DNA of 64,000 bases from Cenarchaeum sp. (GTDB lineage Archaea > Thermoproteota > Nitrososphaeria > Nitrososphaerales > Nitrosopumilaceae). Location of the stretch: assembly GCA_965206845.1 (NCBI GenBank), contig OZ242221.1, positions 512,001 through 576,000 on the forward strand. The letters are read 5' to 3'. Position 1 is the stretch's first letter. Each line of letters begins with the position of its first letter. Both the position numbers and the translations under genes were made by a program. The notes under the pieces were generated by a model. The model was not told where the DNA came from. It made no database searches and saw nothing but the letters and a program-made list of their open reading frames with translations. Below are positions 1,955-55,720 of the stretch, piece by piece.

Positions 1955-2180
1955 GAAATGAAGAGAGCCTGCATAAAAATAAAGGTATGCCGCCCGAACT
2001 GTGCAGCCAGCCACGATATCTGCCAAGATGCAGGCATGGGGGCATTGAGCTATCACTCTGCTGTTTTTTTAACTGCGCTGCTCAGCTGGCAGTCCTGCAG
2101 ACCAGTAGCATAACTGGGGAAGCTGTTGCCCATACGCCAACACTACTAACGGCACCCGATTGAGGCGCCACATCGTGCAG

Positions 2181-2342
2181 TCATGGTTTCATCTTACTGT
2201 ATTTGTCCCGCGCCTTTAGGTACTCCTCAAGAATTTTATGACAAGTGTCACAGATCATTATCTTCTCCCCGATCTCCTTGTCGTGGTGCACTGTAAGTGA
2301 CTTAATGCTCTTGCAGCAAGGACATATTCCCAAACCGCCCAT
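2181..2342 (-). CDS. 53-aa Zn-binding micro-protein with an HNH-like Cys/His skeleton
   Basis: MGGLGICPCCKSIKSLTVHHDKEIGEKIMICDTCHKILEEYLKARDKYSKMKP*; TATA-like TTTAAATA (2371-2364) 22-29 nt upstream of the ATG. Confidence 0.7.
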   Translation of the reverse strand: MGGLGICPCCKSIKSLTVHHDKEIGEKIMICDTCHKILEEYLKARDKYSKMKP

Positions 2343-2371
2343 AGCAGGGATATGAAATGTACTTATTTAAA

Positions 2372-2530
2372 GGGAATTATATACATGAGTGTACAGTACC
2401 CATGCCTTTTGCTGGCGCTCTTGCAACCACCCCGGCGCTTGGCTCTCGCGCCTTGTCTGGGGAGCGCCCGGGAGCAATCCCGGACTGTGGCCTCGCGCCT
2501 TCAGACGACCATCCCGGCCGCCCTGCCGCT
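2372..2530 (-). ncRNA. Predicted omega/reRNA scaffold overlapping the tnpB 3' end and the element end
   Basis: Position inferred from known TnpB biology; GC-rich segment after RuvC-III, duplicated AAGGCGCGAG, terminal hairpin CATGGGT-ACTGTAC-ACTCATG (2404-2384). Boundaries uncertain. Confidence 0.4.
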
Positions 2531-4026
2531 TTCACGGCAATATTATGCGCCGCGTTTATGTCGGCGTTGATGTCATTGTAACACTTGTCATTGGTGCAGA
2601 GGAACCTCCATTGGGAGATCCTGGATTCCTTGTCGCTGTGGCCGCACTGGTGGCATGTGATGCTGGTGCCCTTGGGGTCCACCATAATTACGGTCACGCC
2701 AGCATTGGCGCAGGCGCCCATGATCTGCCGCTGGAAAGTCCCGGGCCTTGAGTAGGCCATCTCGCGGTTGAGTCCCGTCTTGGCCGCGCTCCCCCTGCCT
2801 TTTCCCTTGACCGTCATGTTGTTTAGGTTGAGGTCCTCCATGGCCACGACGCCGGCGCCGTCCGCTATCCCCTTGGAAACGTGTCTTTCCCAGTTCGTCT
2901 GGCGGTTGACGATCTTCTCGCGTTTCTTCCCGATATTCCTCTGGAGATCCTTGTAGCTTCTTGACTTTGGCTTCCTCGGCTTGTTTTTGTTGTTACTGTT
3001 ACCGTTCCCGTTCCTGCCTTCATAGGCATCATGCCTGATGCGCCTGTTCCCGCGTCCACCGCGCTTCTTTGAGAGTTCTGAATACATCCTGGATAGGTCG
3101 TCATTCTTGGCGCGTCTGCAGTCCTTTGGGAGGTCGTGGAACGCGTGGCTGCCCGTGTCCAGATCCACTGTAGTGGCCTCGTGGATGATTCCCATGTCAA
3201 CGCCCCTGACAATTGTGGACTCGGACGGCTCTGGAGCCTTGGTTTCAACCTGGATGTGGAGCCGGTACGTCCTGTTGTGGCTCTCGGTGCGCCTCGTTGT
3301 TTTCTTGGTCGTCTCCACCAGCTGAAAGGATCGCATGTCGAGCCCCTCCACGTCGCCGTGCACCCTCACGGTGCCTATGCCAGGAAGGTGCAGCATGCCG
3401 TTGCCCTTGTATGTGGGCTTCACAAACACCGATAGAGACCGCTGCTTCCCCTTCCTCTTGAACAGGGAATCACTGTGGCGCCACCTGTTCCTCTTGTTGC
3501 TCCACTTGTTCGATGGCAAATTTTCCGCCGCGTCAATATTCTCGACACCATCCTTTTCCCTGTAGCGCCTGGCCAGGTACTTCCACAGTGACTTGTCTGC
3601 GCGCTTTTTCCCGTTGGATTTCATGAACTTCTTTACAGCGTCCAATCCTTGCAGGAGCCCTGCCCTCTGGACAAGGACGCCGCCCTTCATCCACTCCTTT
3701 TCGTTTCTCCACTTCGTGAGCATCTTGTTGAGGTCAAACTTGGTTGTCCTCGGATCGTTGATCTTCTCCCTGACGGCCATGTTGAAAGCCCACCTCTGCT
3801 GGTCCATGTGGCGGGATATGAGATCCGACAGCTCCGCCGACTGGTCAAAGTCCACCTTTATGTTGCGTATCATGGCGCCCTCCATTTGGCGCTTTGACCA
3901 CTTTTTTGGCGCCGGCCCGGTTGCAGCTGCGGCTACATCCACATTCTCCATTGTTGCCACTGTTGCAGCCGGCGCGATTGCCGTTGCCATGGCGTGTCTT
4001 GCCATGCGTTTAATATTAAACATCAC
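2377..4026 (-). CDS. tnpB: TnpB-like RNA-guided endonuclease (RuvC + Zn ribbon), up to 549 aa; true start may be ATG 4005 or 3990
   Basis: RuvC-I RGVDMG, RuvC-II VAMEDL, TSITCHQCG...FLCTNDKC Zn finger, RuvC-III NADINAAHNI; N-terminal RWAFN helix motif and LHLPGIGTV wedge motif; stop codon lies inside the TIR. Confidence 0.9.
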   Translation of the reverse strand: MMFNIKRMARHAMATAIAPAATVATMENVDVAAAATGPAPKKWSKRQMEGAMIRNIKVDFDQSAELSDLISRHMDQQRWAFNMAVREKINDPRTTKFDLNKMLTKWRNEKEWMKGGVLVQRAGLLQGLDAVKKFMKSNGKKRADKSLWKYLARRYREKDGVENIDAAENLPSNKWSNKRNRWRHSDSLFKRKGKQRSLSVFVKPTYKGNGMLHLPGIGTVRVHGDVEGLDMRSFQLVETTKKTTRRTESHNRTYRLHIQVETKAPEPSESTIVRGVDMGIIHEATTVDLDTGSHAFHDLPKDCRRAKNDDLSRMYSELSKKRGGRGNRRIRHDAYEGRNGNGNSNNKNKPRKPKSRSYKDLQRNIGKKREKIVNRQTNWERHVSKGIADGAGVVAMEDLNLNNMTVKGKGRGSAAKTGLNREMAYSRPGTFQRQIMGACANAGVTVIMVDPKGTSITCHQCGHSDKESRISQWRFLCTNDKCYNDINADINAAHNIAVKAAGRPGWSSEGARPQSGIAPGRSPDKAREPSAGVVARAPAKGMGTVHSCI

Positions 4027-4236
4027 ATAAAAGCCGGCGGCCGTACCATGCGGGCAGTGCCGGCCGGCGTCGTAAAACCTGGAACAATCGCCGGCCAGTT
4101 AGGAACCTGGAAGACCGGTCTGCCGGACAGCATGATCTGCCTGAACGGGAAGCCCCGGCCATGCAACAGCGCCGGCAGTTCACTTAACTATATAATTCCC
4201 TATTTAAACAGGAAAGGTAGGTGAGTCTGGCCACTG

Positions 4237-5157
4237 CTAGGGGGATCCTCTCAGGGATGCCAGAAGCGCCTTTTGCGTGTGGAGCCGGTTCTCCGCCTCA
4301 TCCCACACCGCAGACTGTGGTCCGTCAATTACCGATGCAGTAACCTCTTGTCCGCGCTTTGCAGGAAGGCAGTGCATGAATATCGCATCCGGTTTTGCCT
4401 CCCCCATCAGTGCGGAGTTTACCTGGAACTTTGGAAGGAATCTTTTGATCTTTGATGGGTCCATGTTGTGAATGGATGAAAAGGTGTCAGTCATCACCAC
4501 ATCCGCATCCTTTGCTGCGGTGGCAGGACTTGTGACCAGCTGCACATCGGTTATCCGAGCCGAGTCTTCCACCACCTTCGGGTCGGGCCGAAACTCCTCC
4601 GGCGTGGCAACGGAGATGCCCATGCCGGTGCCGGCGCAACCCAGTATCAGTGAGTTACACACGTTGTTGCCGTCCCCGATCCAGGCAACCTTCAGGCCTG
4701 CAAGGTTCTTCTTCCTCTCCTTGATGGTCATCAGATCCGCCAGGGTCTGGCACGGGTGAAACGAGTTAGACAGTCCGTTGATTACCGGGACGCGCGCGGC
4801 AGCCGCCAGGTCCTCCACCATTTCGTGGTCAAAGACCCGAGCCATGATATAGTCCACATATCCAGAGAGCGTCCTTGCGGTGTCTCCGATCGTCTCCCCC
4901 CGCGATAGCTGCATATCGTTTGATGAGAGCACCACCGCGCTACCTCCCAGCTGGTACATTCCCACCTCAAAGCTCACACGTGTCCTGGTTGATGGTTTTT
5001 GAAATATCATTGCAAGTGTCTTGTTCTTCAAAAGCGGTTTTGATACGCCGCTCTTTAGATCCTTCTTGAGGCCTGTAGCGAGATCAATTAGGGAGCCAAT
5101 CTCGTCTGGGGAGATTTCGTCAAACCGAAGAAAGTCCTTTGTTTGTAGGCTCATCAT
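4237..5157 (-). CDS. argF: Ornithine carbamoyltransferase
   Basis: STRTR, HPCQ and FMHCLP motifs. Confidence 0.95.
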   Translation of the reverse strand: MMSLQTKDFLRFDEISPDEIGSLIDLATGLKKDLKSGVSKPLLKNKTLAMIFQKPSTRTRVSFEVGMYQLGGSAVVLSSNDMQLSRGETIGDTARTLSGYVDYIMARVFDHEMVEDLAAAARVPVINGLSNSFHPCQTLADLMTIKERKKNLAGLKVAWIGDGNNVCNSLILGCAGTGMGISVATPEEFRPDPKVVEDSARITDVQLVTSPATAAKDADVVMTDTFSSIHNMDPSKIKRFLPKFQVNSALMGEAKPDAIFMHCLPAKRGQEVTASVIDGPQSAVWDEAENRLHTQKALLASLRGSP

Positions 5158-55623: not shown

Positions 55624-55720
55624 TGCCGGAGGTGGGTTTCGAACCCACGACCTCCAGATTATGAGTGTTGCCTGTTTTTTGGAGAAGCTGGCACTCTAGG
55701 CCAGGCTGAGCTACTCCGGC
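55624..55720 (-). tRNA. tRNA-Met(CAT), probably elongator, with 21-nt non-canonical intron at 30/31 (55667-55687)
   Basis: Acceptor GCCGGAG/CTCCGGC-A; removing the intron yields stem CCAGA/TCTGG with loop CT-CAT-AA; T arm GTGGG-TTCGAAA-CCCAC; central BHB helix TGCC/GGCA. Confidence 0.9.

Follow-up and report, generated by a model that had tools for sequence, protein, structure and literature searches.

We report that a TnpB nuclease gene in a 64,000-nucleotide stretch of archaeal DNA (the window; positions 512,001 to 576,000 of contig OZ242221.1, Cenarchaeum sp.) is housed in a DDE-type transposon at window positions 2364-4208. TnpB, from which Cas12 descends, usually accompanies transposases whose excision leaves no scar. 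The element described here is bounded by terminal inverted repeats and an 8-bp target duplication, its ends are shared with elements that carry IS1595 transposases, and it is quite likely to be a transposase-less, non-autonomous IS1595 derivative. A reading of the region from its letters alone (the sequence-only reading) had described it as a repeat-bounded, duplication-flanked unit with TnpB as its only gene, and this description was confirmed.

The unit between the two copies of the duplication measures 1,829 bp when read directly from the sequence (window 2372-4200). Its left end is GGGAATTATATACATGAGTGTACAG and the reverse complement of its right end is GGGAATTATATAGTTAAGTGAACTG; these 25-nt ends agree at 20 of 25 positions, and their outer 12 nt, GGGAATTATATA, are identical (positions in Table 1). 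The same pair of ends was the top-ranked inverted repeat in a repeat search of the window (24 nt, 83%). The duplication is exact and reads TATTTAAA on both sides. The sole long open reading frame (ORF) of the element is tnpB, whose 3' end lies 5 nt from the nearest transposon end. When at most one mismatch was allowed, the 12-mer was found twice in the window compared with 0.12 expected, and none of 100 shuffles reached two. The whole genome holds 45 occurrences, compared with 2 for the reversed control.

The host genome is a complete single contig of 1.65 Mb (99.99% complete) and is archaeal, as archaeal small- and large-subunit rRNA models win the clan competition. A DNA search of this genome with the window element returned 31 matching places at 67-100% identity; nine long full-copy matches were 71-80% identical to it. 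Pairing of the ends gave 15 two-ended elements of 1.83-2.64 kb at 71-82% identity. Their 8-bp flanks agreed at 8/8 in ten copies, at 7/8 in two and at 6/8, 5/8 and 1/8 in one each, and no two of the 15 duplications share their sequence. An open tnpB of more than 500 codons is kept in 12 of the 15, while the others have an in-frame stop, a split gene and an interrupted gene, respectively. Over the tnpB core, the 66 pairs of the 12 intact copies gave a median dS of 0.75, a median dN of 0.15 and a dN/dS of 0.23. The insertions are inferred to be younger than the split between the copies, because the median dS is 0.75 yet 10 of the 15 duplications are perfect. Conservative moves or repeated acquisition would fit this pattern better than a recent burst of copying.

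The interruption of the third defective tnpB (G000:870565-872715, G000 being this genome) is due to a separate IS5-like element. This 1.2-kb insertion sequence (L032 1651-2850, equal to G000:870715-871914) has seven copies in the genome at 95-100% identity, which suggests recent activity. Its product, a 342-aa DDE_Tnp_1 protein, scores below the cut-off of IS5-family models. Its gene was considered as the mobiliser of the TnpB elements and was rejected, as it belongs to a separate element nested in a truncated tnpB.

Including relatives, 44 two-ended TnpB elements were examined in eight genomes from three genera of one family. Their duplications agree at 8/8 in 30, at 7/8 in five and at 6/8 or fewer in nine, and the sequences are all different. 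Copies with other 8-bp duplications, which the sequence-only reading had proposed to look for, were thus found both in this genome and beyond it. The same 12-mer terminates the 44 TnpB elements and 12 elements without TnpB, and all 12 listed elements of the latter group have 8/8 duplications. Across 301 genomes of the class, the exact 12-mer occurs at least eight times only in the eight genomes of these three genera; elsewhere it is near the control level (the tally includes the unpublished genome G272, with a single match). Among 100 other genomes sampled from the family, close relatives of the window protein were found in none. More distant TnpBs, about 450 aa long and with 35-45% identity over the C-terminal part, are numerous in a second genus; two complete genomes of that genus hold 20 and 28 matching pieces, and these TnpBs, too, lie between the same 12-nt ends with 8-bp duplications. 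A third genus, represented by two genomes, has further TnpB clades.

When one genome per species was scanned, one further tnpB, 69% identical, was found in a metagenome-assembled genome labelled Dehalococcoidia (L134 1201-3082, CBDCSY010000001.1). The 3' end of this element is exact, and the 5' end is truncated next to another transposase-like gene. The label could reflect mis-binning or a transfer between domains.

An allele of the window site that lacks the element was also observed. Contigs of four public runs were mapped on window 2000-4600, and in run X13 one contig joins position 2363 to 4201, skipping 1,837 bases, which correspond to the element and one copy of the duplication. Eight letters at this junction fit either side, and the shorter side has 38 letters. 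The contig has a depth of 566.6, compared with flank depths of 340-717 in the same run. Occupied junctions were present in runs X1 and X7. The empty allele with a single TATTTAAA that the sequence-only reading had looked forward to was therefore seen in this X13 contig. An empty site was also sought in the congener G006, where argF and the upstream gene are split between contigs and argF does not adjoin the 53-aa gene; synteny was unusable there.

The link to the IS1595 family comes from same-ended elements. At eight loci of relatives (L079, L056, L062, L119, L120, L148, L149 and L150), transposase genes lie between exact GGGAATTATATA ends flanked by perfect 8-bp duplications. The transposases of L079, L056, L119 and L120, all four that were scanned, score 156-177 bits on NF033547 (cut-off 75). 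This genome itself has one intact IS1595-family transposase gene (309 aa; 117 bits on PF12762, 160 bits on NF033547). When the protein was aligned with four relatives, the zinc-ribbon cysteines and conserved acidic residues were invariant among the five. The sequence GGGGCTTATATCGCTGAGTACACATTA, located 60 bases upstream of the gene start, matches a TnpB-element end at 21 of 27 positions by our own count, and the second end of this copy was not found by motif search or local alignment. A second IS1595 gene is broken (two stops, with only residues 5-139 aligned) and lies directly beside an orphan exact GGGAATTATATA end at G000:1467226. Homologues of the 309-aa transposase occur in 8 of 100 sampled family genomes; one of these, the unpublished G091, is a weak match on which nothing rests. 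Membership of IS1595 is shown at the family level only. The ISNwi1-group end consensus ggnnatTAT, given by the sequence-only reading and found in none of the papers available, would be fitted by GGGAATTAT.

These ends also move without tnpB. Element L145 (61-1883, 1,823 bp) has the same ends and carries a gene for a DNA methylase-HNH fusion alone, without a transposase, and miniature elements of 351-386 bp have the same ends and perfect duplications (L147 59-409, L127 60-431 and L152 59-444). A composite element with both transposase and tnpB was sought and none was seen among the elements examined; the adjacent cases L064 and L077 in G064 look like neighbouring or nested separate elements.

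We therefore asked how well other sources of mobility would account for the unit. It could be an IS200/IS605 or IS607 solo-tnpB element (IS1341 type) whose ends and duplication are coincidental, as the window protein has sub-threshold matches to the IS200_TnpB and IS607_TnpB models. Coincidence would have to explain 30 perfect and five near-perfect different duplications among 44 elements, a 12-mer count of 45 against 2 in the control, and the same ends around IS1595 transposases. The enzymes that move such elements were not found in the genome: Y1 transposase (PF01797) gave no match there but matches in 6 of 14 control genomes, and serine recombinase (PF00239) gave no match there but matches in 12 of 14. 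None of the homologous tnpB copies examined had IS605-type ends, one of the findings by which the sequence-only reading would have failed. The chance of such a coincidence is practically nil, and we count this explanation as refuted. It is also very improbable that the elements are transposed by TnpB itself or by some enzyme that went unrecognised. The RuvC fold and DDE transposases belong to the same RNase H-like superfamily, and the genome has no intact, fully cognate autonomous partner, both of which speak for that idea; against it, same-ended elements without tnpB move, whether they carry an IS1595 transposase, the methylase-HNH gene or no gene.

The sequence-only reading had proposed a non-autonomous cassette of DDE type mobilised in trans, and the shared ends, the duplications and the IS1595 genes in relatives support this, together with the broken copy beside an exact end in this genome. 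It is very likely that an IS1595 DDE transposase supplied in trans would bind the repeats and move the cassette, probably conservatively. An 8-bp staggered cut at AT-rich sites would yield the duplication, and the transposase gene would have been replaced by tnpB with its own omega-RNA scaffold. The candidate source of transposase in this genome would be the 309-aa gene and, historically, the now-broken copy with exact ends.

Some further features of the same-ended elements were observed. Downstream of the intact IS1595 gene, L051 1065-1315 contains a cluster of 26-28-nt inverted repeats (GGCTCTGGTAAATTCTAGTGATC and partners), located where the missing end of that copy would be expected. The methylase-HNH gene is also carried by the IS1595 elements L119 (59-2895), L149 (59-3220) and L148 (61-3929). 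Additional miniature elements with the same ends are G000:1178387-1178755, G000:938659-939364 and L124 64-381, giving a size range of 318-706 bp overall.

The protein encoded in the window element has the features of a guided nuclease. It matches Pfam Cas12f1-like_TNB at 2e-14 and NCBIfam guided_TnpB (NF040570) with 122.7 bits over residues 57-497 (cut-off 100); six relatives score 100.2-130.7 bits on the latter model, so all seven tested proteins are above the cut-off. Its C-terminal third aligns to solved Cas12f and TnpB chains. In an alignment of seven divergent proteins (27-63% identity), the RuvC residues D277, E397 and D489 and the CCCC zinc finger C458, C461, C477 and C482 are invariant, and the motifs bearing them are kept in all 12 intact tnpB copies of the genome. 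The intact catalytic residues and zinc finger pointed out in the sequence-only reading are thus borne out. Together with the dN/dS given above, the data show that intact TnpB is under purifying selection.

The 3' end of tnpB behaves differently from the rest of the gene. Synonymous divergence decreases from 0.47 to 0.18 over its final 59 aligned codons, where dN/dS is about 1.1; this part is constrained as nucleic acid rather than as protein. RNAalifold analysis of the last 215 nt of the 15 copies gave 50 pairs in eight helices, 11 of them with compensatory changes. In this fold 97.3% of cells are paired, compared with 35-49% when partners were slid by 1-3 columns; there are 44 double-change cells, compared with 1-4 when partners were slid, and the observed covariation score was reached by none of 500 shuffles. 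Several pairs are G-U in all or most copies, which assigns the fold, as RNA, to the sense strand of tnpB. When the window copy was folded singly, the z-score was -1.7 and 11 of 200 shuffles folded as well; the support comes from covariation and not from energy. The scaffold overlaps the last ~63 tnpB codons, and its last hairpin (window 2383-2405) is in the inner part of the 3' terminal repeat. The elements of the second genus gave an analogous fold of 44 pairs, nine of them compensatory. A stem GGGCGGC-loop-GTCGTCC with a GGGA-containing loop is common to both genera, in which the proteins are only about 29% identical. No Rfam family matches the element; the only hit had an E-value of 0.71. 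By covariation alone, these results point to a structured RNA over the tnpB 3' end that would read into the flank. A transcript ending beyond the 3' repeat would give an RNA whose tail is flanking DNA sequence (the duplication and the next bases), and TnpB would probably use it as a guide.

An alternative is that tnpB is inert cargo or a recruited non-nuclease, and that the conserved 3' sequence is merely a transposase-binding or other DNA-level feature. Many inactivated or exapted TnpBs appear in the survey of Altae-Tran et al. 2023 (PMC10691335), as far as its text was available, and no RNA reads were obtained for the RNA-fold region of the element, both of which would suit this explanation. 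Inert cargo would not be expected to keep the catalytic triad and zinc finger invariant at 27-63% identity or to show a dN/dS of 0.23. A DNA-level feature is countered by the G-U pairs, which the opposite strand would show as C-A mismatches, by the 11 compensatory pairs, and by the position of most of the fold, which in most copies is inside the inner edge of the repeat and outside any region common with the 5' end. We consider this alternative improbable, and a guided nuclease remains the preferred reading of tnpB.

Parts of the 3' RNA module were also seen elsewhere. In G000:1188043-1189924 and G000:1049606-1051551, about 128 nt of the module are repeated in inverted orientation at the 5' end, and both copies have C, which is G on the opposite strand, at the mirror position past the downstream duplication. 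A 369-bp miniature element consists of two inverted copies of parts of the module and could act as a source of guide RNAs that lacks a nuclease gene. Two weak nhmmer hits to the module, at G000:1577664-1577772 and G000:1583622-1583765, have different terminal letters and may represent a more distant family. In six elements of G099 (L114, L115, L117, L118, L122 and L123), an internal sequence, GGGAATTACAAACGCGCC, is present about 398 bp away from the tnpB 3' end. It is similar to the terminal repeat, is directed towards the 3' end and may have given rise to the ~372-bp miniature elements.

The flanks of the insertions were then compared for a target-adjacent motif (TAM). Elements were oriented by tnpB, and the 35 with a duplication of at least 7/8 were kept. 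At position -9, directly before the upstream duplication on its 5' side, 29 of the 35 insertions have G (binomial probability ~1e-10 at p=0.3), and 26 have T as the first base of the duplication (-8). At the mirror positions on the other side, C was found in 6/35 and A in 14/35. On a tree from a quick maximum-likelihood IQ-TREE run, G at -9 was present in 12/12 insertions of this genome's clade, in 11/11 and 3/4 of two clades of the second genus, in 2/2 of clade V (genome G152, third genus) and in the one insertion of L146, a long single branch (genome G082, second genus). It was present in 0/3 and 0/2 of two deep clades, each with 100% SH-aLRT support, which have TA, AT or CA at -10/-9 instead. 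The one-sided G appears to be a TAM rather than a transposase preference, because it varies with the TnpB clade and with the direction of tnpB, whereas the ends are common to all clades.

Target-site choice by the IS1595 transposase could also produce the G and the following T, in which case the TAM of TnpB might be another motif. Weak target preferences are frequent in DDE transposases, the duplications are AT-rich throughout, and many copies have two ends that differ in their inner parts, which makes an asymmetric complex conceivable. The 12-nt ends, on the other hand, are identical in all TnpB clades, yet the count of G at -9 is 29 of 30 across five clades and 0 of 5 in the other two. The 12 same-ended elements without tnpB have G on 6 of 24 sides, which equals background, and copies whose two ends resemble each other over ~23 nt (for example G000:411159 and G000:992385) still have G on the tnpB-upstream side. 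We regard target-site choice as unlikely, though it is the strongest of the competing explanations, and continue with the TAM. Separately, when the orientation of the miniature element L127 was read from its diverged inner end, G was on the expected side by our own reading.

A TAM in this position would suggest a way in which the nuclease serves its element. The target would be the unoccupied allele, in which the 8-mer and its flank are preceded by the upstream flank ending in G. In the occupied site the 8-mer is preceded by the terminal CCC of the repeat, so the element would not cut itself. If empty alleles were cut and then repaired with an occupied chromosome copy as template, the insertion would be maintained or spread. 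The chances are about even that TnpB targets empty alleles through a G TAM, spares the occupied site and so maintains or spreads the insertion. The presence of G only on the tnpB-upstream side of surviving insertions could then be explained, because cutting of empty alleles would retain TAM-adjacent insertions. Any role of chromosome copy number is speculation. Slightly short of even, in our estimate, is the fuller proposal that TnpB and its guide RNA were fitted to a loosely targeting DDE transposon, with a TAM outside the duplication that is G or clade-specific, only TAM-adjacent insertions being kept and CCC acting as the shield. The last hairpin of the RNA, the C-terminus of TnpB and the transposase-binding repeat would in that arrangement be overprinted on the same ~30 nt.

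Several points weigh against the picture of a trans-mobilised, homing TnpB element. As for mobility, the genome yielded no autonomous partner that is both intact and exact in its ends: in the intact IS1595 copy the end has diverged at 3 of the first 12 nt, and the copy with the exact end is the broken one. No two of the genome copies are near-identical, which argues against a recent burst. The empty allele is represented by one contig of one metagenome run, with those 38 letters on its shorter side. As for the RNA, the contigs of the RNA-labelled run X17 are confined to 2672-3867, may stem from DNA carry-over and give no cover on 2348-2608 or on the junctions. Some copies have terminal repeats of up to 128 nt, so that part of the RNA module is also present at the 5' end, and these long repeats blur the argument from end asymmetry. 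As for the motif, it has only one or two informative positions, which is short for TnpB, and 6 of 35 insertions lack G at -9. The contrast with the clades lacking G was drawn after the pattern had been seen, on a quick tree. Finally, DDE excision already leaves a break, and a homing nuclease has been argued to be of little benefit to such elements (PMC13565253, in the part of that review available to us).

The architecture is rare but has already been reported and is not new. Altae-Tran et al. 2023 in PNAS (PMC10691335) describe, in the portion available, six DDE-associated TnpB branches (DDE-1 to DDE-6), all with inverted terminal repeats, as well as solo TnpBs that have the same ends as transposase-bearing copies and were inferred to be moved in trans. 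The elements studied here are similar in their inverted ends, in a tnpB 3' end within 250 bp of the transposon end, and in solo copies sharing transposase-bearing ends. They differ in the transposase family: as far as the main text of that study goes, only IS630 is named (DDE-6), and IS1595 stands solely in a supplementary list of transposase profiles. The present lineage may already be within those DDE branches. A 2026 review (PMC13565253) lists, in the part available, ISL2, IS630 and IS1031 as DDE carriers of TnpB. The suggestion of the sequence-only reading that this is possibly an undescribed RNA-guided system consequently did not hold as to novelty, as DDE-linked and solo TnpBs had been described, while its reading of the element itself stood. 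Our literature search, judged by titles and abstract openings, found no paper joining TnpB and IS1595 and none on TnpB insertion sequences of Nitrosopumilus; TnpB or Fanzor with Merlin gave unrelated reviews only. What the present family adds is an empty allele, a covarying RNA within the repeat, alternative cargos and a one-sided motif that differs between clades.

Compared with the families on either side, the element combines features of both. IS1595 elements make an 8-bp target duplication, and some members have passenger genes (Siguier, Gagnevin and Chandler 2009, as summarised in the available part of PMC8101967). The window element and its relatives share the terminal inverted repeats, the duplication and the passenger genes (methylase-HNH in L119, L148 and L149); unlike IS1595 members, the window element has no transposase, and its cargo is TnpB with a predicted guide RNA that overlaps one terminal repeat. 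It resembles IS200/IS605 (IS1341-type) and IS607 elements in the nuclease family and, by prediction, in a guide-RNA scaffold that extends over the 3' end of the gene into the flank. These usual carriers depend on Y1 or serine enzymes for their movement, lack terminal inverted repeats and make no duplication (PMC13565253 and PMC6188088, in their available parts), in agreement with the sequence-only reading, whereas the window element has both and neither enzyme was found in the genome. Fanzors in eukaryotic transposons are likewise TnpB-family nucleases in DDE-type elements with terminal inverted repeats and duplications (Bao and Jurka 2013, PMC3627910; Sci Adv 2023, PMC10530073; as far as available), and in Fanzor transposons the 5' duplication forms part of the TAM, according to the available part of PMC13565253. 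Fanzors belong to eukaryotes or their viruses, while the host here is archaeal and the protein scores as a prokaryotic TnpB.

Why TnpB sometimes rides in DDE transposons, and whether it can help them, is debated (PMC13565253, in the part available). In this lineage there are dozens of dated insertions, an empty allele, and sister elements that have the same ends but other or no cargo; together with the covarying RNA and the clade-specific one-sided motif, these make the question cheaply testable. If the homing proposal is true, this would be a natural many-copy case of RNA-guided homing for a cut-and-paste element that makes target duplications. The compact archaeal TnpBs (445-549 aa), with a possibly minimal TAM, may interest genome editing. 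We see the family as a good worked example rather than a new kind of system.

Table 1. Parts of the TnpB element in the window, its neighbouring genes, and IS1595 transposase elements with the same ends
Feature	Window position or size	Strand	Remarks
Neighbouring ORF	2181-2342		53 aa, zinc-ribbon-like
Flank outward of tnpB 3' end	2352..2371	minus	Downstream copy of the duplication (2364-2371, TTTAAATA) and next 12 nt; putative omega-RNA guide segment
Terminal inverted repeat, tnpB 3' end	2372..2396		Left end; outer 12 nt GGGAATTATATA; tnpB stop TAA (2377-2379, minus) inside
Omega-RNA-like scaffold	2372..2566	minus	Helices 2383-2566, then 11 unpaired nt (2372-2382) to the element end
tnpB	2377..4026	minus	549 aa from GTG at 4026; true start uncertain
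Terminal inverted repeat, tnpB 5' end	4176..4200		Right end
Upstream copy of 8-bp duplication	4201..4208		TATTTAAA
Candidate TAM	4209..4212	minus	CCTG on tnpB strand; G (window 4209) directly 5' of the duplication; TAM function inferred
Neighbouring gene	4237-5157		Ornithine/aspartate carbamoyltransferase
IS1595 element L079	2,046 bp		Duplication TTTGGTTT
IS1595 elements L056 and L062	2,131 bp		
IS1595 element L119	2,837 bp		
IS1595 element L120	2,690 bp		
IS1595 elements L148, L149 and L150	3.2-7.1 kb		

Two minor observations concern the window itself. On the strand of the 53-aa gene (window 2343-2371, minus), the duplicated 8-mer reads TTTAAATA, lies ~22-29 nt upstream of the ATG and resembles an archaeal TATA box; the insertion would have doubled this promoter element, with one copy remaining in place. 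Many other duplications of the element family are also TATA-like AT-rich 8-mers. The only Rfam match at gathering score within the window is a tRNA at 55624-55720, which at 97 nt is longer than usual and may contain an intron.

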